A stretch of 64,000 bases of DNA from Candidatus Bathyarchaeota archaeon (GTDB lineage Archaea > Thermoproteota > Bathyarchaeia > 40CM-2-53-6). Positions 9,067-42,026 of the stretch are shown piece after piece. Location: positions 1,216,001-1,280,000 of the forward strand of contig CAVSBL010000002.1 of assembly GCA_963726255.1 (NCBI GenBank). The letters are read 5' to 3'. A program made the translations under genes and the position numbers. A model generated the notes under the pieces. That model was not told where the DNA came from and did not search any database. It was given only the letters and a program-made list of their open reading frames with translations. Each line of letters opens with the position of its first letter. Position 1 is the first letter of the stretch.

Positions 9067-9161
9067 TGGTGGGCCCGCCCGGGTTCGAACCGGGGATCTC
9101 CGCCGTTCCCATATCATCGCTAATGTGAGGGCGACGTCTTAACCAGCTGGACTACGGGCCC
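9067..9161 (-). tRNA. tRNA-Val(CAC) with 18-nt canonical 37/38 intron (9106-9123) and encoded CCA
   Basis: GGGCCCG acceptor stem, TCGCC/GGCGG anticodon stem, loop CT-CAC-A^C, GGTTCGAACCC T-arm; BHB central helix CTCA/TGGG. Confidence 0.92.
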
Positions 9162-32188: not shown

Positions 32189-32359
32189 GCCGGGGTAGCC
32201 AAGAGACCAGCTTCTGGTCGGGCAACCTGGTATGGCGTCGGCTTGCTAAACCCGCAAAACGAGTGCCGTAAGCCGATGACTCTCTGAGTCTCGTGGGTTC
32301 AAATCCAGCTGTGGGGTGTTTCGGACACACCCCCGGTGGTGAAAATCCCACCCCCGGCG
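32189..32359 (+). tRNA. tRNA-Ser(GCT) with three introns: D-loop 15/16 (32204-32225), 37/38 (32249-32270) and T-loop 59/60 (32304-32345)
   Basis: Removing the three segments gives GCCGGGGTAGCCAAGCCTGGTATGGCGTCGGCTTGCTAAGCCGATGACTCTCTGAGTCTCGTGGGTTCAAATCCCACCCCCGGCG (long variable arm, G discriminator); each junction forms a BHB-like motif, the third perfect (TTCA/TGAA). Confidence 0.9.
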
Positions 32360-32586
32360 CCTCACAAACCTAGTAGACTCTGTTCCACTGGAGAGAAGTG
32401 TGTGTGGATCTGTTTGCGCGCGCACCCAGAAGCTGTCCCTCCTCCTAGTCATTTTCTTGGACATCAAAGGAACCGAAATTTGATTGATGAAGAGCGAATT
32501 TGCGATAAGACATAAACTTAACTAGTATGCTGGAGATGGCGCGTCGCAACTCGCCTTGTCAGTACAGATCAGGAGGTGGAATAATT

Positions 32587-32892
32587 ATGGCAAAATACAT
32601 GATCGAGTTCAATCCCCCCGTAGATGCGAAGAATAGTTTCGAGAAAAGTCCGGATTTGCAGAAAAAGATGGGAGAGGCTATAGAGCGAATGAAGCCTCTC
32701 GCTGCTTGGTTCACCTTGAGGTACGGTTTCTTCGTGGTGGAAGCAAACTCAAACGACGAACTCACCAGGAAAGTGGCGCCGTTCTTCTACCTGTTCAAGA
32801 CAGACGTGAAAATATCACCGGCCTTAGGTCTAGATGAGTTCCCCAAGGTTGTGGCTGCCCTCGGTGAAGAAGCAAAGAAGTACGGATACTAG
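32587..32892 (+). CDS. DUF3303-like small dimeric alpha/beta-barrel protein
   Basis: KP.AAWFT..R.GFFVVE...APFF..V.I.P pattern; GGAGGTG RBS. Confidence 0.6.
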   Translation: MAKYMIEFNPPVDAKNSFEKSPDLQKKMGEAIERMKPLAAWFTLRYGFFVVEANSNDELTRKVAPFFYLFKTDVKISPALGLDEFPKVVAALGEEAKKYGY

Positions 32893-33029
32893 AGAAGGTC
32901 CGCCTACAATTTCCGTGCGAGGTTGGACTTGTCCCCTTTATTTTCATTAGACCGTTCTTCCGTGCTGTGACACACCTTGCATTCTTCGAAGTACGCGAGC
33001 GGAGCAAAATGAACTCGACCCGCCAACCC

Positions 33030-33167
33030 AAGAGTTTAGTAAGTCACGCATTATGCATGAACGATAGCGGATTGTCCGACGCGAAAGACTTGAGCAATGA
33101 TAATCATCCGGTGTTCGCCGAGTCACGCACAAAAAGCACGGGGGGTTCAAATCCCACCCCCGGCGCC
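33030..33167 (+). repeat. att-like unit A: int(N)-like mini-ORF ending in an intron-less tRNA-Ser 3' end
   Basis: 33143-33167 GGGTTCAAATCCCACCCCCGGCGCC equals the spliced tRNA 3' end; upstream part homologous to 34282-34420. Confidence 0.85.
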
Positions 33168-33179
33168 ATTTATTTTCGC

Positions 33180-33216
33180 GTGTGTATCTAGTGGTGCGAA
33201 CAAGCGAATTTGAACC
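33180..33216 (-). repeat. Degenerate reverse-oriented tRNA-3'-like repeat, copy 1
   Basis: GTGTGT..TCTAGTGGTGCG..CAA..GAATTTGAAC, repeated at 34219-34260. Confidence 0.6.
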
Positions 33217-33288
33217 GTCGCGGTTTGTCGTCAAGATTCTGCGTGGGTATAGCTGGTGCGCACACACAAAGGAAACGCGTTTAGTTCG

Positions 33289-34020
33289 TTATTCGAGCAA
33301 TCGGAGTGTAGCTTTCATTCTACTGTCGAAAAGAATGTGCCTCCATCTCGTGTCAGAGCTCTGCCCTTTCATTGACCTTGCCCTGATTGTGTTGATGACC
33401 TCCCCGTGGTGTTCCTTCAGCTTGAGCTCGAACACTCCATCTGACACCAGCTTCATTTCCTGATAGAATTGTGGCGTATGTATATCAACTGCCAGACCAA
33501 GGATCATGACAGCTCCCTGAGCCCTCCATACTCCCACGACCTTTCTAGAGAACTTCGCAAACACCTTATCCTGATCACCCCCCAAGCTCGAAAATGATTC
33601 TACAAAAACCAACGTTCCTGGCGGCCATTGGGGTGCCGACTGACCTATGGTAATGGACCGTTCGTTCAGGTTTGAGGCCGTGTATTGATATTTCTCAGAT
33701 GACTTCACACCCATTAGCCCGGAATAAACATCAAAGAGAACGGCATTATCTCTCGCCTCGTATTCCGCTATGTTCACTCCAAGATCGTTTAATTCCTTCC
33801 TGATTTCGACCGTGGGCCTAGATGAGTGCAAGTAGAGCAGATCCCCACCAGTCTTCAAATGTTCCGCTGCAATGTTGATCATCAATGAGCTATACTGGCT
33901 ATCAGGATCGTACAAAGCAAGTATCACTCTTCCGTAAGGAATGCTGCCAAAAATCTCGGAAAGAATAGGTAGATCGAGCTTTCTTACTTCAACAGACTCT
34001 GATCCCGAAAGCTGTGGCAA
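33289..34020 (-). CDS. RAD55/KaiC (RecA-fold) family protein with degenerate Walker A
   Basis: IPYG.VI...YDPDS (no GKT), .SDGVFELK......IR..SMKG....RW; start estimated. Confidence 0.72.
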   Translation of the reverse strand: MPQLSGSESVEVRKLDLPILSEIFGSIPYGRVILALYDPDSQYSSLMINIAAEHLKTGGDLLYLHSSRPTVEIRKELNDLGVNIAEYEARDNAVLFDVYSGLMGVKSSEKYQYTASNLNERSITIGQSAPQWPPGTLVFVESFSSLGGDQDKVFAKFSRKVVGVWRAQGAVMILGLAVDIHTPQFYQEMKLVSDGVFELKLKEHHGEVINTIRARSMKGQSSDTRWRHILFDSRMKATLRLLE

Positions 34021-34025
34021 GCATA

Positions 34026-34175
34026 TCAGCGCGATCGCTTCGATCTTAGAATTCGGTAGGGCTGTTCGCGCTGGTCTGTAGCATGGTAATCGTCGGGGTA
34101 GTCCGTCCACCAAGCACGAACCGATTCGGGAGGTTTCTGAATCATCAATTCGAGGTTAGGAACTTCAGAATCCAT
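34026..34175 (-). pseudogene. Probable gene fragment
   Basis: Short ORF (PPESVRAWWTDYPDDY...EQPYRI) that looks like an N-terminal remnant inside the island. Confidence 0.3.
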
Positions 34176-34218
34176 GCAGTCGCATTGGTTCGTATGGCTT
34201 TTGAGTCTTCCCTTTTTT

Positions 34219-34260
34219 GTGTGTGTGGGTCTAGTGGTGCGGGCAACGGAATTTGAACTC
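34219..34260 (-). repeat. Degenerate reverse-oriented tRNA-3'-like repeat, copy 2
   Basis: Reverse complement reads GTTCAAATTCCGTTGCCCGCACCA. Confidence 0.6.
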
Positions 34261-34281
34261 GCCGTAATTGGATGTCGACCT

Positions 34282-34420
34282 AAGAGTTCAGTGTAAGACA
34301 AGCATTATTCATGAACGATAGTAGTTTGTCAGACTCCAAAGGCTCAGCGAACGACAAACTTCCGGTGTTCATCCAGCCAAGCACAGGAACTGCGGGGGGT
34401 TCAAATCCCACCCCCGGCGC
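34282..34420 (+). repeat. att-like unit B: int(N)-like mini-ORF ending in an intron-less tRNA-Ser 3' end
   Basis: 34397-34420 is a 24-nt match to the spliced tRNA 3' end; ATG-to-core distance is 86 nt, the same as in unit A. Confidence 0.85.
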
Positions 34421-34525
34421 TTTCAGCTACGCTCAGTCTATTGAAACACGCAGCTCATTTCTTGCGCAACGTGTTTTCTGGAACCAGCAACCTCGAATGA
34501 TAAGCTAAAGCGCCCGCGTGAGATC

Positions 34526-34921
34526 CTAGGGAGACCCTAGCTTATTGGCGCGCGCCAGCAGGTCCCTCAAGGCCTTTCGTCCGAACATTTGGGAGTGCAT
34601 GCATAGGATTCCAAGCAGTTTCTCCTCCATTTCCTTTTGGCACCCCTTCATCCCTTTCGACACCTTTTTCTCTGCTTCCATCCCACGACGTGTAAGCTCG
34701 TAGTATATCCTGCCAGTTTTCTCGTCTTTTTTCGAGCGTATGACCCCTCTGCGTTCCATTCTTCGCAGGAAAGGGTAGATTGTACCGTAGCTAACCTTGA
34801 TGTGGCCTCCGGTCATTTTCCGAAAACGTGCTGCGAGTTGATACCCATAGGCAGGCCCCTCTCTCATGGCCATGTAAAACATCACTTCGTATGGTCGAGG
34901 CTCTGCTTCTTTCGCCATCAA
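34526..34921 (-). CDS. PadR-family transcriptional regulator
   Basis: GPAYGYQL, VSYGTIYPFLRRME..G, YYELT..G. Confidence 0.92.
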   Translation of the reverse strand: MMAKEAEPRPYEVMFYMAMREGPAYGYQLAARFRKMTGGHIKVSYGTIYPFLRRMERRGVIRSKKDEKTGRIYYELTRRGMEAEKKVSKGMKGCQKEMEEKLLGILCMHSQMFGRKALRDLLARANKLGSP

Positions 34922-34937
34922 TCATCCCCGCCCCATG

Positions 34938-35004
34938 TATCAGCTCGATATATTAAAATACTTGCGGTGCCTATCGGAGCGATATTATCTAATCGATATA
35001 TCGA
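34938..35004. promoter_or_regulatory. Three TATC-N4-CGATAT boxes, putative PadR operators in the divergent promoter
   Basis: 34938-34951, 34972-34985, 34986-34999, plus perfect palindrome TCGATATATCGA at 34993-35004. Confidence 0.6.
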
Positions 35005-35025
35005 AATGAGACTGGGCGCTGGAGT

Positions 35026-35823
35026 ATGCCGGAACCTTCATCTAGGTACGCGATTGAAACTCACGGTCTTACAAAGAACTTTAACAGCTTCACAGCAGTC
35101 GACCACATCGACCTCACTGTTCACAGGGGAGAAATCTACGGATTCCTCGGACCAAACGGCGCAGGGAAGAGCACAACAATACGAATGCTCTGTACTTTAC
35201 TTGCACCGACATCCGGAAGCGCAAGCGTTGACGGATACGACATTGGCAAGCAGGGGAATGAAGTTCGGAAGAGGATTGGGCTGGTTTCTGAGAAGATGAT
35301 CATGTATCCGCGACTGACGGCTTTTGAAAATTTGATGTTCTTTGGCAGACTATACGGAATTGACCGAGGAGCGTTGCGGAAGAAGTCAGAGGAACTGCTG
35401 GAAATGGTCAAGCTAACTCCATTCAAAGACAAGCTTGTGGGTGGTTTCTCAAGCGGGATGAGACAGCGTATAAACGTAATCCGTGCAGTCCTACACGACC
35501 CTGACATCCTTTTCCTCGACGAGCCAACAACTGGACTGGATCCGCAGAGCACACGCTTCGTGAGAGATTTGGTCAAGGAATTGAAACAGCGAGGTCACAC
35601 GATCGTCCTGACGACGCATATAATGGAAGAGGCTGACGAACTCTCCGACCGTGTCTGCATCATCGACAACGGCAAGATCATGGCTGTGGATCCTCCTCAA
35701 GCATTGAAGGAGAAATACAACACTAACAGCCTGCTCGACGTCTTCCTTGAACTCACCGGCCGCGAACTCCGTGACTCTGCAAACGGACGCATCTCAATGC
35801 GAGCACCAATGGGCCGAATGTAG
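35026..35823 (+). CDS. ABC-2 exporter ATP-binding protein
   Basis: GPNGAGKST, FSSGMRQR, LDEPT, TTH. Confidence 0.93.
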   Translation: MPEPSSRYAIETHGLTKNFNSFTAVDHIDLTVHRGEIYGFLGPNGAGKSTTIRMLCTLLAPTSGSASVDGYDIGKQGNEVRKRIGLVSEKMIMYPRLTAFENLMFFGRLYGIDRGALRKKSEELLEMVKLTPFKDKLVGGFSSGMRQRINVIRAVLHDPDILFLDEPTTGLDPQSTRFVRDLVKELKQRGHTIVLTTHIMEEADELSDRVCIIDNGKIMAVDPPQALKEKYNTNSLLDVFLELTGRELRDSANGRISMRAPMGRM

Positions 35824-35824
35824 A

Positions 35825-37032
35825 ATGGCTAAAACAGCGACGTGGGATTTGACGCTCGACATTGCACGCCGCGACCTCCTAGACCTCTGGCGGTCCAAAA
35901 TGCTGCTATTCTTCTTCCTCCTGTTCCCCATCCTGTTGATGAGCATGTTCGGCTACATCTATCCGCCAGTCCCGAAATCTAATGCGAACACAGGCATCAT
36001 CGGCACCGCATTCCCCAATCTCCCAGTCTCATTGGTGCAGATGGATGATGGTAAGACAGCGAACCTGATTGCTGCCCAATTCATCCAAATCTCCCAGCAG
36101 CAAGGACTCTTCACTGTCTCCCAGTCCGCCAGCTACCAATCCGCCCGAAGCCAGCTGGTAGAGGGAAAACTCAAGGGAATCATAATCATTCCACAAGGCT
36201 TCAGCGATGCTCTAACCGCTGAACAGCCCGCCACCGTCCAGGTTACTGTCGACGAAACGAACCCAACTACCGCCTCTGTCGTTCAATCCGAAATCTCAGC
36301 CGTCTTTAACATCATCGGTTCAAGCATGTCCGCGCAAAACATTAACAATATGGATGGTGGCAGAGTCAACCCTGCCTTCATCATGCAGCCCATCTCCGTC
36401 ACTAACATACCGCTAATCACCGGCGTCTCTTCCTCGTTCCAATTCTTGGCTCCAGGCTTCATGGCACTAACCGTAATCACTGGCTCCCTCCAAGGAGTCG
36501 CAACTGCAATATCACGCAAAAAGAACAAGGGACAATGGACGGCCTCCTCGTTGCACCCATCTCCCATCAATCAATAATACTCGGCAAGGTGGCAGCGCAA
36601 ACAGTACGGGGGTTGATCCAGGGACTTCTAATCCTCGGACTATCTATGGTACTCTTCGGCGTCCGGATATACGGCAGCCCATTTATCATGCTAATCGTCA
36701 TGGTGCTCGGCACAGCGAGTTTCGTTGGCGTAGGCATAATAATGACTGCAGTAGCTCCCGACCAAGAAACTGCCCAAATGATGACGATAATTCTCCAGTT
36801 CCCAATGATGTTCATCAGCGGTATCCTATTCCCTATCGACCAACTCCCGGGGTGGATGCAATACATTGGAAAAAGCATGCCACTTTACTACGCGGCAGAT
36901 GCTCTGCGCAAAGTGATTATTCTCAATGCAAGCCTAAGCGCCATCATGCCCGACGTACTGATACTCATCGCCTACACGTTCCTAACAATGACTCTGGCTG
37001 TCCCGTTATTTGAAAGAGCCATGAGGCGCTAG
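35825..37032 (+). pseudogene. ABC-2 permease split by a 1-nt deletion near 36518
   Basis: Expected ISR-EKEQGTMD reads cgc-aaaaagaacaagggacaatggac (one base short); the two ORFs are the N- and C-terminal halves. Confidence 0.8.
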
Positions 37033-37166
37033 CAATCTGCCACGCATTGCCTGAGAAAGGCTGTATCATTTGTGGTTACCGAGACCACCGGTTGATAGGC
37101 TGCGCAACTCATAGGGCGAAAGAATGCAGTTGCTTCAAGAAAGCCGAAAGTAATTGATTCGTTATT

Positions 37167-37862
37167 CTACGCTTTCTTCTTCGACAAGGTAACGGCCATT
37201 ACGCGAGCTTGGTCGCATGCATCTTCGCAGCGGTCCGCAGTATTCTCAATCGCCTCCACGAATTGGCTAAGCAGGATAATCGAACCCACATGCACCCGGT
37301 CTGTTTCTATATCATTGAGGATACCGCGCGCCTTTTGGTGTAGACCGTCCACTTTCTCCTCCAACCGTTCAACTTCGTCTGCTGCTTTCAAGGACGCGTC
37401 GAGACTACCGTCGATAAGTTTCTGCACGGTGTCTGCAACGTGTATTGTGGCTTGAGTCGTAGTTGAACACATTTCCACTAGAACATCTTGAATCTGTTTG
37501 GGCATTTTGGAGAGGTCGAACATGACGAGAATGCGGCTTGCTTCATGCGAACAGTCGGTTATCCAGTCAAGCTGCCTGCCAAGACGCATCAAGCCACTAC
37601 GATCATCGGAAGGCAATTCTCCACGGGCAAGTTCCTCTATGATCCGCCTTCTCATGATATCCGCCTCATGCTCCTTCTGCTCGAGCAACTCGAAGCTCTT
37701 CTGCAACTCTTCCTTCCTACCGCTGATAGCGTTCTGGATGCATTTTCCTAGTAGCTCAACAGTGAGGGTCGTCATCTTTGAGTGTTCAAGCACTAGGCCC
37801 ATTGCCTTCACAGTCCGACGCGCCACCAACCAACTTTCTATCGACATCTCATACCGCCTCAA
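37167..37862 (-). CDS. DUF47 / PhoU-like protein
   Basis: EHEADIMRR, LDWITD, LEEKVD, E..ADRCED..D. Confidence 0.85.
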   Translation of the reverse strand: MRRYEMSIESWLVARRTVKAMGLVLEHSKMTTLTVELLGKCIQNAISGRKEELQKSFELLEQKEHEADIMRRRIIEELARGELPSDDRSGLMRLGRQLDWITDCSHEASRILVMFDLSKMPKQIQDVLVEMCSTTTQATIHVADTVQKLIDGSLDASLKAADEVERLEEKVDGLHQKARGILNDIETDRVHVGSIILLSQFVEAIENTADRCEDACDQARVMAVTLSKKKA

Positions 37863-37877
37863 TCATGATACCGTTAA

Positions 37878-38975
37878 CTACTCCAGGCTGACCTCTTTCT
37901 CCAACCCCTCTTCGGGGTAGTCGAATAAGAGCATATGCGCATTATCTTCGAGAAGCAAGCTGACGCTCTCACCGACCCTGAAACCAGTACTGTATTCGGC
38001 AGTGGACTCCTCGGCAACAATTTCAATTCCCCCTTCAACCTCGACGACGTAACGGTTTAGGCTGCCCAAGAAAGTGACTTGCTTTACCCGCCCCTGCCAT
38101 TCCATCCTAGTAGGAGTTGTCAATGGTACAAATTCAGGGCGAATCGATACGACGACCTTCTGGTCAACTTTCTTCCCAAACCCGGCAACCTTGAGTTTGT
38201 GCCCCTTTACGTCAACCGTGCATTGCGAGCTATGATTTTCCAACACTTTTCCCTCTAGGAGGTTGGTTTCCCCAACGAAATTCTCTGTGAACAGGTTCTT
38301 CGGCGAAAGATAGATTTCAGATGGCTTTCCAACCTCGACAATTCGGCCGCTTTTCATTATAACTATACGATCTGCAATGGACAGTGCTTCCTCTTGATCG
38401 TGCGTCACGTGAATCACCGTCAAACCAAGGTCTGACGCTAGTTTCCTCAGCTCATATCGCAATTCCGTTCTCACTATCGCGTCCAAAGCTCCTAGCGGTT
38501 CGTCTAAGAGGAAAAGATGGGATCCGGTTGCAATGGCTCGACCCACTGCCACTTTCTGTTGTGCGCCGCCGCTTAGCTCCCTTGGATAGGATTTCGATCG
38601 GTCTCGCATGTTGATGAGGTCTAGCATTTCGTTTGTAACCGTCGTAATTTCGCTTGATTGTGCATGCCTAACAGCAAGGCCATAGGATAAGTTGTCCCGG
38701 ACTGACATGTGTGGGAAGAGAGCAATATCCTGGAACACATAGCCGATCCGTCTGTCTTCAATTGGGGTTTCTTCAATGGATTTGCCGTCGATGAGAATTT
38801 GGCCGCTGTCGGGTGTGTGGATGCCTGCAATGCACCGAATCAATGTACTCTTACCGCAACCGCTTGGGCCGAGTATGCACACATACTCCTTGTCTTCAAC
38901 GTGAAGTGAGATGTCGGATAGCGCTTGAATGTCCGCGTAGGTTTTTGATACGCCCATTAAATCCAGTTTTGGCAT
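37878..38975 (-). CDS. ABC importer ATP-binding protein (PotA/MalK-like with TOBE domain)
   Basis: GPSGCGKST, LSGGAQQK, LDEP, VTHDQEEA. Confidence 0.92.
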   Translation of the reverse strand: MPKLDLMGVSKTYADIQALSDISLHVEDKEYVCILGPSGCGKSTLIRCIAGIHTPDSGQILIDGKSIEETPIEDRRIGYVFQDIALFPHMSVRDNLSYGLAVRHAQSSEITTVTNEMLDLINMRDRSKSYPRELSGGAQQKVAVGRAIATGSHLFLLDEPLGALDAIVRTELRYELRKLASDLGLTVIHVTHDQEEALSIADRIVIMKSGRIVEVGKPSEIYLSPKNLFTENFVGETNLLEGKVLENHSSQCTVDVKGHKLKVAGFGKKVDQKVVVSIRPEFVPLTTPTRMEWQGRVKQVTFLGSLNRYVVEVEGGIEIVAEESTAEYSTGFRVGESVSLLLEDNAHMLLFDYPEEGLEKEVSLE

Positions 38976-38976
38976 C

Positions 38977-40083
38977 TTACGCTATCTCCAACTCCTTCGC
39001 CAAACCCTGCGGTGGGTATTCAAAGACCATAACATCCCCTTCGAGGAAACCCGCTAACACTTCGTCCCCTACCTTGAACGCCCCTCCCTCGCGTTCAGCA
39101 AACAGGCGCGAGGTGAGGATATCTCCGTTCGGAATGCGAATCAAGTACTCATTGGAATTTCCGAGGAATCTAACACCGCGTATCTCCCCTTTGAAGACGT
39201 TTTCCATTTCAAGACGATCGCGAGCGATTCGAACACGCTCTTTTCTCAAAGCCAGGATGACCGGTGCTGTCAGTGTGAGGTTTTTTGAAGGCGCTTGAAC
39301 TGTGAGGCCACCTCTTACACTGATTAACGCGGTCTCTCCAACGGTAGTGTCCACTATGCCTTCCAGGAGGCTTGCCCCTCCAATCATGTTTGCAACGAAG
39401 ACGCTGGCAGGCCTCCTGTAGACTCTGCGCGGTAGGCCGTAGTCTTGGATTCTTCCATTTCTCAAAACCAATATTTCGTCAGCGACGCTCATGGCCTCAT
39501 CTTGATCATGGGTCACGTGTATGGCTGTAGAACCTGACTGTTGCACGAGGTCCCGAATCTTGTGGCGAAGATCTAATCTCAGCCGCGCATCCAAAGCACC
39601 AAGCGGCTCGTCAAGAAGCAGTAAGCCCGCCCCTGACGCTAAACCTCTTGCCAATGCAACTCGTTGCTGCATCCCACCGCTGAGCTCGTTCGGCAAGGCT
39701 TGGGCTCGCGAGGACAGCCTCACCAGATCTAATACCTTGGAAGCAATATCTAGAGCAACGGAAGCAGGTTTGCCTCTTGCTAAGGGGCCGAAAGCCACGT
39801 TCTGCAGGACCGTAAGATGTGGGAAGAGTGCGTACTGTTGTGGAACATAGACTGCGTTTCGGTCTTGCGCGCCTACGTTGTTGACGAGTTTTCCATCAAA
39901 GTATATCGTGCCGGCGTCAGGCTTTAGAAGACCCGCCATGAGCTTGAGCAGTGTTGTTTTCCCGCTTCCCGTCGGCCCAAGGACGCACAAGTATTCCCCG
40001 TCCCTAACCTCAAAGGAAACCCGATCCAGAGCCTCAACTCTGCCGAACTTCTTCGTGACGTTAACAAAACTCACTTCGGGCAT
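38977..40083 (-). CDS. ABC importer ATP-binding protein
   Basis: GPTGSGKTT, LSGGMQQR, LDEP, VTHDQDEA. Confidence 0.92.
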   Translation of the reverse strand: MPEVSFVNVTKKFGRVEALDRVSFEVRDGEYLCVLGPTGSGKTTLLKLMAGLLKPDAGTIYFDGKLVNNVGAQDRNAVYVPQQYALFPHLTVLQNVAFGPLARGKPASVALDIASKVLDLVRLSSRAQALPNELSGGMQQRVALARGLASGAGLLLLDEPLGALDARLRLDLRHKIRDLVQQSGSTAIHVTHDQDEAMSVADEILVLRNGRIQDYGLPRRVYRRPASVFVANMIGGASLLEGIVDTTVGETALISVRGGLTVQAPSKNLTLTAPVILALRKERVRIARDRLEMENVFKGEIRGVRFLGNSNEYLIRIPNGDILTSRLFAEREGGAFKVGDEVLAGFLEGDVMVFEYPPQGLAKELEIA

Positions 40084-40086
40084 GCT

Positions 40087-41778
40087 CTAAGCGACCTTTC
40101 TCGTGGGGTGGCGGATGGAGACCAACCGGAGCATGACCAATGCGAGGAATGAGGTTGCCACGAGGAAACCGACTCCCAGAGCGCGTTCGGCCGGAGTCAC
40201 TGGAACCACTCCCCTAATCCAGCTCACGAGCAAGATGGGTGCGGTTTGTAGAGTGGTAGCAACCGCTGATGTGGCACCTGTTTCGTCAACACTCCTTGTG
40301 AAGACCAAGATAGCCCCAGAAAGTAAAGAGTACTTTGTGAGTGGCAGGGTTATTTTTCGAAAGACCCGAAGAGGCATGGCGCCCAATGTTTTTGCAGCGT
40401 CCTCAAGTTCGGGTGCTATTCCTTGAATCGAGGCCGCCATTGTACGAACAAAATAGCTGTAAGTTATTGTTGTGTGGGCGAGTACGATTACCCAGAATTC
40501 GGGTAAGGCACCCATGTTGCGCCAGAAGAAGTTCAACGAAACGCCAAGTGCCAGAGAAGGCACGATTATCGGGAGGTCGACGAGCGCATCGATAACCCTC
40601 CCCAACCTTGTTCCGAATCTGTTCCGCGCAATCAGGATAGCCACTGGCAATCCGGATACGATGTTCACGATTGTCGCTAGCACAGCAACCACGTAGGATA
40701 GGAGCATACTCGACCAGAAGGGCTTCCAAGGCCCTGCTCCGGCAAGGGCCTCTGTTGCCGTCCCGCCAGCAACTGCCTGTATTGCCGGCAGGGCGATGAA
40801 AAGGCATGGAAGAAGGACGAATACCAGAAAAACGACCAGGCTGATCGCGTTTCTCGCGGAAACAACTGGGGACTTGCTTAGTTTTCTTTCAAGGTTAGGC
40901 CAAACCCTGAGCGGTGCAATCCTAATTCTGGGTGTAATGATTTTGATTAGTGCGAAAACCACGAGCGACGAGACGATTAGAACCAAGCTCGCAATGACAA
41001 CAGCGGACGTTAAGTGTGATCCACGTGCATTGCTAATGAATACGGTTCCGTTCTCGAAAGCGCCGGCTACAACAATCGTTGCCCCTGTTTCCGAGAGTGA
41101 ACGCGCCAATGCCAACAGGAACGCAGCCAGTATACCGGGTCTGAGTATAGGCATGGTCACAGTTCGTACTGCAGTGAATGCTGAGGCCCCGAGGGTTCGC
41201 GCTGCGACTTCGTAAGTCTCGCGGTAGTTCAGAAACTCACCCACCATGACGCGTACAATCACTGGAAACGAGAATGCGAAGTGAAGCAACATAATCAGGA
41301 TGGCTCCTGAAGTCACAAGGCTAGTACCTCCGAAAAGTTGTGCGATACCCCCTGGGCTGCTCCAGAACTCCAATATTGAGAAACCCAAAGCGACAGTGGG
41401 GACTATGAATGGGATATCAGCGAGGCTGTCGAGAATTGTCGTCCAATGCCCTCGCCTTCTGACAATAAGCCAAGCCAACGGTATGCCGCATAAGACATCT
41501 AAACTTGATACGACTAGTCCGATCACGAACGACCATGTTATGGCGCCCCGCATTCTAATTGCAACATCAGCGTTCAAAGCCAAACTGGGAAGTGAAATCA
41601 GTTGAGCGACTATTCCTGCAATCGCGGGGGTTATCACGATCAGAATGAAGAAAATGACTGCAATAGAGTACACTCCCTTCGTCATGCCGGCCCTAGCAGA
41701 GAATCGTTCCAAGAATAAGAGAAAGCGACCAAGAACTGAGGTTGAGTTGGCAGCCCGGGGTCTTGTGTCCTGCACCAC
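40087..41778 (-). CDS. Fused double ABC permease (FbpB/ModB-like)
   Basis: Two EAA loops (EVAARTLGA, EDAAKTLGA) and two RS..ETGAT motifs. Confidence 0.88.
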   Translation of the reverse strand: MVQDTRPRAANSTSVLGRFLLFLERFSARAGMTKGVYSIAVIFFILIVITPAIAGIVAQLISLPSLALNADVAIRMRGAITWSFVIGLVVSSLDVLCGIPLAWLIVRRRGHWTTILDSLADIPFIVPTVALGFSILEFWSSPGGIAQLFGGTSLVTSGAILIMLLHFAFSFPVIVRVMVGEFLNYRETYEVAARTLGASAFTAVRTVTMPILRPGILAAFLLALARSLSETGATIVVAGAFENGTVFISNARGSHLTSAVVIASLVLIVSSLVVFALIKIITPRIRIAPLRVWPNLERKLSKSPVVSARNAISLVVFLVFVLLPCLFIALPAIQAVAGGTATEALAGAGPWKPFWSSMLLSYVVAVLATIVNIVSGLPVAILIARNRFGTRLGRVIDALVDLPIIVPSLALGVSLNFFWRNMGALPEFWVIVLAHTTITYSYFVRTMAASIQGIAPELEDAAKTLGAMPLRVFRKITLPLTKYSLLSGAILVFTRSVDETGATSAVATTLQTAPILLVSWIRGVVPVTPAERALGVGFLVATSFLALVMLRLVSIRHPTRKVA

Positions 41779-42026
41779 TCACTCAACCCATCAGAGTTAG
41801 ACTTCAGACCACTTAAGAATATGATGCGCTAGACTTTACATTTGTGGACCTTTTTTTGAAAACTACATACCAACCGGCTACTGCGGAATCCGGTCAAGGC
41901 GACTGGAGACCAAGTAGCAGTTGCTCAATCACCTCCTTTCGGTCTGCTGCTCAAATTTCCAAATTGTGAATTTGATAGCAAGATTCGGAGTCAAACTAGT
42001 TATTTTATCGTGAGTAACATCCGCGC

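Follow-up and report, generated by a model that had tools for sequence, protein, structure and literature searches.

The origin of non-canonical archaeal tRNA introns is still termed open in the available text of a 2026 preprint (10.64898/2026.10.13.758758). Two proposals tie such introns to integrating elements. The hypothesis of Randau and Soll, in the portion of PMC4390854 that relays it, holds that disrupted tRNA genes are retained as protection against integration. For Caldiarchaeum subterraneum, Sugahara et al. (2012) proposed that an intron was gained when an intron-containing element attachment site (attP) recombined with an intron-less chromosomal one (attB), and the accessible part of their paper has tRNA fragments scattered later by homologous recombination among repeats (PMC3293823). 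Here we describe a locus on which both proposals bear. The window, a 64,000-nucleotide stretch of a Candidatus Bathyarchaeota archaeon genome (GCA_963726255.1, contig CAVSBL010000002.1, positions 1,216,001 to 1,280,000 of the forward strand), contains a tRNA-Ser(GCT) gene whose T-loop intron falls inside the attachment (att) core of integrative elements of its genus. The gene probably heads a tandem array of integrative-element remnants, now decayed, that adjoins its 3' end, and its intron was probably brought in by att recombination.

To our knowledge, the sole explicit mobile-element model of intron gain rests on the one Caldiarchaeum locus. The parts of the present locus are known, namely a non-canonical bulge-helix-bulge intron and att scars of unsplit integrases in a tRNA-linked island; together they form a second and much fuller example of the integration-mediated model of intron gain, a mechanism that had already been proposed. 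As far as the accessible account of the Caldiarchaeum case goes, the two loci share a pNOB8-type unsplit integrase beside the tRNA (here in relatives), and that case comprises one tRNA-Thr locus in one population, an intron at 24/25, a 5' fragment and a recombinase that is still there. In contrast, the intron described here lies at 59/60 inside the T-loop of the att core, its target is common to two tRNA-Ser genes, 12 genomic and 7 metagenomic copies show the intron-bearing att directly, the comparison spans 23 genomes, and the integrases of the focal genome (G000) have been lost. With the Randau-Soll idea our case shares an intron within an integration sequence, and it differs in that interrupted cores join arrays and elements carry the intron.

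Three further systems are close. Fujishima et al. in 2010 reportedly described non-canonical bulge-helix-bulge tRNA introns and intron transposition in Thermoproteales, where homologous introns are said to occupy the same position in different tRNA genes and the splicing endonuclease to have two different subunit genes, both as here. Unlike in Thermoproteales, a trailer beyond the gene end travels with the intron in our case, which points to DNA exchange via att sites rather than an RNA-level route. In bacteria, cis-mobilizable elements undergo accretion at att sites, and the integrase-less, att-bounded units stacked in tandem by our tRNA gene resemble these; such units may be simple deletion remnants. 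For Thaumarchaeota, the consulted sections of one survey place 39 of 68 integrations in tRNA genes, 10 of them intron-containing (PMC6563490). Judged by the available descriptions, pNOB8-type and thaumarchaeal elements are like ours in their direct repeats of tRNA 3' ends, an integrase on the same strand by the reconstituted tRNA, tandem arrays and variable islands; unlike them, G000 keeps only integrase-less units between cores, 0.8-2.2 kb long. The genus amounts to a natural experiment: one 24-nt target occurs in two tRNA genes, with and without the intron on both the chromosomal and the element side, and closely related genome pairs differ in intron state, so that delivery by integration and blocking of integration both become testable.

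A tRNA-Ser gene with a predicted T-loop intron

Unspliced, the gene at 32189 receives no call from ARAGORN and none from Rfam. With its three introns removed (Table 1), ARAGORN reads an 87-nt tRNA-Ser(gct) with a full cloverleaf. A scan of boundary choices returned the same identity with matching anticodon-intron boundaries, and at minimum energy 32189-32368 folds into a cloverleaf that carries three extra hairpins. A preliminary description of this DNA had recognized one intron rather than three and had placed the gene end at 32365, which we correct to 32359, the discriminator, or 32361.

The comparison covers 23 genomes of the genus of G000, the genome that contains the window, and tRNA-Ser(GCT) orthologues are readable in 19 genomes; a 20th, in G006, is cut by a contig end. 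The D-loop intron occurs in every one of the 19 orthologues, with differing sequence; its boundaries in G000 were modelled on the D-loop of another tRNA, at C2:297602. The anticodon-loop intron at 37/38 is missing in 10 of the 19, where the anticodon loop is uninterrupted, and its bulge-helix-bulge is relaxed, the 5' bulge alone being clear (fold read by eye).

The T-loop intron is predicted to be genuine and splice-competent. Its boundaries are fixed by the 16 of 19 orthologues that lack exactly these 42 nt. Read by eye from the fold, the 59/60 motif consists of the T-stem, a 3-nt bulge (AA^T), a 4-bp helix (TTCA/TGAA), a second AA^T bulge and a CCA/TGG helix. Across 13 aligned copies of the intron, the parts of this motif are invariant and the hairpin contains compensatory pairs. 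For the splicing endonuclease, G000 has two open reading frames (ORFs) with an EndA domain (PF01974; 80.9 and 53.3 bits). The strict motif, the cloverleaf restored on removal, the compensatory changes and the two EndA-domain ORFs together argue that the intron is real.

Uninterrupted att cores and the elements that left them

The T-loop intron divides a 24-nt block of identity, within the T-loop, into 9 + 15 nt. This 24-mer, GGGTTCAAATCCCACCCCCGGCGC, recurs exactly at 33143-33166 and 34397-34420, whereas 32337-32360, in the interrupted gene, matches it only with 3 mismatches; from 100 shuffles no match is expected. The preliminary description had noticed that the sequence split at 59/60 stands whole (25 and 24 nt) at 33143 and 34397, and these matches are indeed exact. 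They are not the only ones, for G000 has four more such copies. A 23-mer of the core finds five exact copies and one with 1 mismatch, the uninterrupted copies all lying outside tRNAs, and at two mismatches it reaches two places, another tRNA and the interrupted gene itself.

Aligned with one another, the six core copies of G000 have 100-170 nt upstream in common, and the likeness ends exactly at the tRNA 3' end. Each core in the window terminates a repeat of ~120-200 nt, of which we call the core-proximal part Module B and the distal part, ~50 nt long, Module A. Module B copy 1 resembles copies at C2:257791, 913355 and 124204, and the unit at 34214-34396 has an orthologue in G021:C45 (96% identity over 109 nt). 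Module A has 23 further places in G000 (E <= 0.01). Module B is present in 16 of the 23 genomes and is joined to other tRNA-like 3' ends as well. The direct repeats of the tRNA 3' end bound non-conserved DNA beside the tRNA, which heads a 9.6-kb variable island extending from 32362 to ~41960. The conserved backbone restarts at ~41960-41978, at the same motif as in G004, G014 and G015. The island measures 9.2 kb in G004, 3.2 kb in G014 and 7.2 kb in G015, where Module B-core copies number 3, 0 and 3, respectively.

A relative retains the integrase that G000 lacks. In G002:C42, a 23.9-kb stretch has at one end an uninterrupted core, followed ~60 nt on by a PF00589 ORF of 318 aa (64.8 bits), and at the other end Module B with the identical 24-nt core (C42:3404). 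Read from the ends of this element, attP would run Module A, Module B, core, short leader, integrase gene. Integration leaves Module B and the core at the far end, and both window fragments are such ends whose integrases have been lost; the element-side arm of the window scars is common to the right-hand junction (attR) of the integrase-bearing element. The earlier proposal that integration at a tRNA-linked hot spot left the fragments as scars holds, with Module B and core as the far end of the G002 element. The accompanying observation that the fragments match the spliced RNA has no special meaning, because they equally match the intron-less allele carried by most of the genus and the att core of the G002 element. 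That spliced tRNA was reverse-transcribed into DNA to give the fragments is hardly credible: the missing intron is the sole point for it, and against it the fragments hold just 24-25 nt of tRNA with no added CCA, are fused upstream to a shared non-tRNA module, and have homologues in relatives that contain the intron.

A tyrosine-integrase family of the genus uses the 24-nt segment from T-loop to acceptor of tRNA-Ser(GCT) and tRNA-Ser(CGA) as its att core, and at least three element families use this target, shared by the two tRNA genes. An integrase stands beside the same core and arm in G002:C42, G003:C5, G002:C2 and G003:C2, and tyrosine integrases occur in 19 of the 23 genomes. One family, recognized by its 'ACTAGTAAACTGG' arm, has only 15-18 nt of identity to the tRNA, all of it right of the intron in the 3' exon; its att sites are G002:C2:95886, G011:C3:427365 and G011:C5:210823, and it comes with an integrase in G002:C2, 1 kb from the tRNA, and in G003:C2. 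G000 itself has no PF00589 or PF16795 match, that is, no intact tyrosine integrase, and no integrase adjoins a tRNA junction there. It has N-terminal remnants, none of them in the window island, after tRNA-Ala and directly after the fragment at C2:1891490 (for a remnant at C2:145932-146255, see Table 1). With no integrase at the core in G000, the window holds remnants and not a live element.

The dispersed copies invite another account, in which Module A/B units, rather than being att scars, form a dispersed family with tRNA-like termini, either of small RNA genes or of miniature transposable elements. The copies in G000 do lie among ordinary metabolic genes with no recombinase in their flanks and no integrase near, the units between cores are small (0.8-2.8 kb) and integrase-less, and the reverse complement of Module A looks by eye like a tRNA 3' end with CCA, which would give inverted tRNA-like ends. 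We regard this account as very improbable: the same module closes the far end of the 23.9-kb G002 stretch, whose near-end core is directly followed by an integrase, related copies end in other tRNA 3' ends, and trailers run into N-terminal integrase remnants. Moreover, the upstream motif does not covary with the acceptor strand by eye, and no Rfam family matches.

Among known phages and plasmids we found no relatives of the att region or the integrase, and the G002 integrase is unmatched in viral contigs. An SSV-type split integrase, in which att lies within the integrase frame and Module B would read through the core into the integrase, was considered and rejected: of six exact or near-exact copies, four keep the frame, one (913421) is frameshifted and one (1891490) has no Module B, further Module B copies have in-frame stops (by eye), and the integrase start lies ~60 nt past the core. 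Also rejected was a large G011 element between the tRNA and a Module B 20.7 kb off, a region that consists of metabolic genes, a KaiC-like/TPR gene and an IS240-type transposase. At G002:C42:27322 and G003:C5:55232, the sequence upstream of the uninterrupted 24-nt core with its adjacent integrase belongs to neither tRNA-Ser gene; it may be either element-borne or part of a third tRNA that is heavily interrupted.

Distribution of the intron across the genus and metagenomes

The T-loop intron is present in 3 of the 19 tRNA-Ser(GCT) genes, those of G000, G021 and G017. Judged from this distribution, it appears to be a derived, sporadic state in tRNA-Ser(GCT), in which case the intron-less fragments of the window would reflect the older allele. 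The second target gene, tRNA-Ser(CGA) (C2:1889157), splices to an 88-nt tRNA-Ser(cga) and has the same 27-nt 3' end. The preliminary description had suggested looking for an intron-less tRNA-Ser as the source of the fragments; tRNA-Ser(CGA) does share the 3' end, but in G000 it is itself interrupted at 59/60, by an intron unlike that of the GCT gene in sequence. A census made with two sequence patterns across the genus, followed by reading of the flanks, found a 59/60 intron in 7 of 21 tRNA-Ser(CGA) genes, of at least four sequence types. An initial impression that tRNA-Ser(CGA) always bears the intron proved to be an artefact of an intron-containing query.

The intron is not confined to tRNA genes. 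Twelve non-tRNA sites carry interrupted cores, some of them partial, and most lie behind Module B or a related arm. Of 58 metagenome stretches that match an 18-nt probe, 7 consist of Module B, a type-1 intron and the 3' exon, and one of these 7 continues into an N-terminal integrase remnant (50% over 97 residues, with a stop ~87 codons on).

Two arrangements of mixed cores were seen besides. In metagenome stretch L274, around position 54, a type-1 intron breaks off after ~34 nt, behind Module B and the T-loop, and passes straight into a complete uninterrupted core, a scar whose appearance suggests a recombinant of interrupted and uninterrupted sites. In G020:C6:38778-47128, an uninterrupted tRNA-Ser(CGA) is followed by an 8.3-kb array of at least five further cores, interrupted and uninterrupted ones mixed, one of them a long tRNA 3' fragment (from ~position 41) with a type-3 intron.

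Proposed arrival of the intron by att recombination

Three findings indicate that the intron came by DNA exchange at the att site along with the sequence to its right: linkage to the trailer directly after the gene, T1, the pattern of identity between lineages, and the predicted product in two genomes. All three intron-bearing GCT genes have T1, versus one of the 16 intron-less ones (G020, where it is partial). Trailers like T1 stand behind non-tRNA att copies too, in G020:C6, G016:C42 and G004, which identifies T1 as element sequence; G020:C6 has the complete order of Module B, intron-bearing core and T1-like trailer, and G016:C42 an orphan 'intron 3' part, exon and T1. The GCT genes of G000 and G017 share the intron (38 of 42 nt identical) and the trailer (18/24) despite unalignable flanks, identity over the upstream 300 nt being 54% and over the 5' portion of the gene 70.9%. 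G019 and G013, the nearest relatives of G017, are identical to it over 93/93 exon nt and have neither the intron nor the T1 trailer. An exchange between an interrupted attP and an uninterrupted attB to the left of 59/60 should yield an intron-bearing tRNA with T1 and, downstream of it, an uninterrupted core behind Module B; both G000 (0.8 kb downstream) and G017 (3.7 kb) show this order.

We therefore favour arrival by integration and propose the following course of events. An element whose attP carried the intron, the 3' exon and the T1 trailer would have crossed with an intron-less tRNA gene, the crossover falling left of 59/60, a side on which 12 identical nt remain. The gene would thereby have gained the intron, and its old uninterrupted 3' end would have been displaced downstream behind Module B, where it may now be seen as the fragment at 33143. 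The fragment at 34397 would stem from an earlier event, and homologous exchange among the repeated modules may later have blurred the array. Our confidence is high for the general picture, att scars with an intron that travels with att recombination, and moderate for the specific step, delivery by an interrupted attP.

A wider version of the proposal is that elements carry a splice-competent intron in their own att and install it in host tRNA-Ser genes as they integrate, spreading it across lineages and both genes and possibly marking the site against rivals. We put this forward tentatively, as a possibility that falls short of an even chance. If true, the arrival of non-canonical introns in archaeal tRNA genes would have a concrete route open to testing.

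Several observations weigh against arrival by integration. No intact integrase lies beside any intron-bearing core, in genomes or in metagenome contigs, so that an active intron-bearing attP is inferred and not seen. At the CGA locus, the tRNA intron of G021 differs from that of G000 at 2 positions, whereas the G021 intron beside a G000-like trailer differs from it at ~10; the closeness to the tRNA copy favours an intron that stayed with the tRNA body, or else a non-orthologous copy. The orthologous Module B copies of G000, whose core is uninterrupted, and of G021, whose core is interrupted, diverge already ~30 nt upstream of the core, and some exchanges were therefore homologous rather than site-specific. 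The GCT introns of G000 and G021 differ at 3 of 42 positions though their flanks are 97% identical. The three intron-bearing GCT genomes are only two independent lineages. Finally, the one metatranscriptome run, with 6% of sampled words present and no contig across the tRNA gene, is silent on splicing.

That the intron has nothing to do with integration is the first alternative to be weighed. Recombination would then have been confined to the 3' exon, so that the tRNA kept its own intron state and the fragments kept the uninterrupted left half of the element; the preliminary description had named such a crossover as its second option. For the ACTAGTAAACTGG-arm family in relatives this is apt, its att identity of 15-18 nt being just the 3' exon and its G002:C2 integrase lying 1 kb from the tRNA, and the available text on thaumarchaeal att sites likewise reports them to be short, with a median of 17 bp (PMC6563490). 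The CGA locus, where the G000 intron is nearest to the G021 tRNA intron and not to the copy beside the shared trailer, agrees with it too. As an account of the GCT intron, however, it leaves unexplained an intron 90% identical between G000 and G017 amid unalignable flanks and absent from the exon-identical relatives of G017, the linkage of intron and T1 trailer, and a Module B orthologue whose core is uninterrupted in G000 and interrupted in G021. We consider it unlikely.

The other alternative, which the preliminary description preferred and which follows the Randau-Soll idea, is that the intron arose or was fixed in place after repeated integrations and was kept because it breaks the att core and so protects the gene. 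Part of that description stands, since the intron is a derived state (3/19) and the intron-less fragments are the older allele. The intron also splits the 24-nt identity block 9 + 15, all four cores with an integrase within ~1 kb are uninterrupted (G002:C2, G003:C2, G002:C42 and G003:C5), none of 10 intron-bearing alleles has an adjacent integrase, and T-loop insertions are frequent in G000 (8 of 27 tRNA candidates).

These points do not carry a protective role, for which we find no support. An integrase within ~1 kb was found for 0 of 10 intron-bearing and 2 of 30 intron-less alleles, which is no meaningful difference; besides the latter two alleles, two further uninterrupted sites near an integrase are of unassigned tRNA identity. 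The interrupted gene retains 12 nt of identity at the left junction and 19 nt at the right, and one element family needs just 15-18 nt, all right of the intron. Arrays mix interrupted and uninterrupted cores (G020:C6, G021). The preliminary description had reasoned that fresh intact integrations at intron-bearing alleles would speak against its view; we found no intact integration at such an allele, and relative to G000 the CGA locus of G021 has an extra 2.8-kb unit between two interrupted cores, so recombination does occur at interrupted sites. The intron sits in 12 element-side att copies and appears to have been acquired horizontally together with an element-type trailer, which delivery by integration fits better than gain against it. 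An intron kept for protection is quite improbable.

Features of the island and related observations in G000

The features of the locus are collected in Table 1, together with those elsewhere in G000 that bear on it.

Table 1. Coordinates of features in the window and, where prefixed C2, on contig C2 of G000
Feature	Coordinates	Strand	Remarks
tRNA-Ser(GCT), three introns	32189..32361	+	Exons 32189-32203, 32226-32248, 32271-32303, 32346-32361; discriminator G 32359
D-loop intron	32204..32225	+	Hairpin inserted in D-loop of the fold; boundaries uncertain by 1-2 nt
Anticodon-loop intron (37/38)	32249..32270	+	Shiftable by one or two A with product unchanged
T-loop intron, between positions 59 and 60	32304..32345	+	42 nt; strict bulge-helix-bulge, internal hairpin
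T1 trailer, element-type right arm	32362..32428	+	~36 nt, then partial Module A from 32398
DUF3303 ORF, cargo of first 0.8-kb unit	32527..32892	+	Pfam PF11746, E = 9e-5
Module B copy 1, element-side (P) arm of att site	33026..33142	+	78% identical to copy 2 over 144 nt
Uninterrupted att core 1	33143..33167	+	25 nt, identical to spliced tRNA 3' end
Module A copy directly after core 1	33170..33224	+	BLAST against the 34214-34265 copy
KaiC-like ATPase ORF, cargo of second 1.25-kb unit	33289..34113	-	Pfam PF06745, E = 3.4e-6
Module A (34214-34265) and Module B copy 2 (34270-34396)	34214..34396	+	
Uninterrupted att core 2	34397..34420	+	24 nt
Rest of variable island	34421..41960	.	PadR, ABC transporters, PhoU-like gene
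Integrase N-terminal remnant	C2:145932-146255		Directly downstream of a tRNA at C2:145780; 47% identity over 108 residues to G019 integrase
Further T-loop-interrupted tRNA candidates	C2:27665(+), 30717(+), 38393(+), 42814(-), 267000(-), 1289775(-)		Besides the two tRNA-Ser genes

G000 is rich in T-loop insertions: a strict scan, which is an incomplete tRNA census, found one of 18-62 nt in 8 of 27 tRNA candidates, and the T-loop intron of tRNA-Ser(GCT) is therefore not exceptional in kind. One of the candidates, C2:1289775(-), is a type II tRNA with discriminator A, probably Leu, whose spliced 3' 22-mer stands uninterrupted elsewhere in G000, in 2 exact copies and 4 within one mismatch. A copy of Module B ends in a 3' end much like that of this tRNA (C2:2285678(+) is listed with it). 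An interrupted tRNA with uninterrupted 3' copies may thus be a pattern repeated at a second target tRNA. At 9067-9161(-) in the window lies another tRNA (Rfam, 51 bits), which ARAGORN reads either with a four-base anticodon or as Ser(cga) with an intron; by eye it is a tRNA with a short arm, CAC in the anticodon loop and an intron immediately past that loop, and the Ser call is probably wrong.

Read in reverse complement, Module A has the look of a degenerate tRNA 3' terminus that includes CCA, with a CA-rich run after it. Copies lie on either side of att cores, and the module may serve as an integrase arm site. Its copies cluster at C2:249-263 kb, 445-493 kb, 871 kb, 1774-1775 kb and 1840-1842 kb, which may be other islands.

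KaiC-like ATPase genes adjoin att cores in three genomes, in the window, in G011 (L048:9244-10674(-)) and in G021 (L228:3875-5974(-)), and those of G011 and G021 are fused to TPR repeats. At C2:122704-124292, a DEAD-box helicase gene is followed by arm and core (124 kb), and in the sister genome G021 (C155:1105-2415) a similar helicase lies within the tRNA-Ser(CGA) array; this placement suggests either that the unit is mobile or that att sites have been rearranged. The small G000 contigs C1 and C5 duplicate sequence of C2:2132745-2135882 (C2:2132-2136 kb), which points to redundancy in the assembly or to a multi-copy element; the 9% contamination estimate may be affected.

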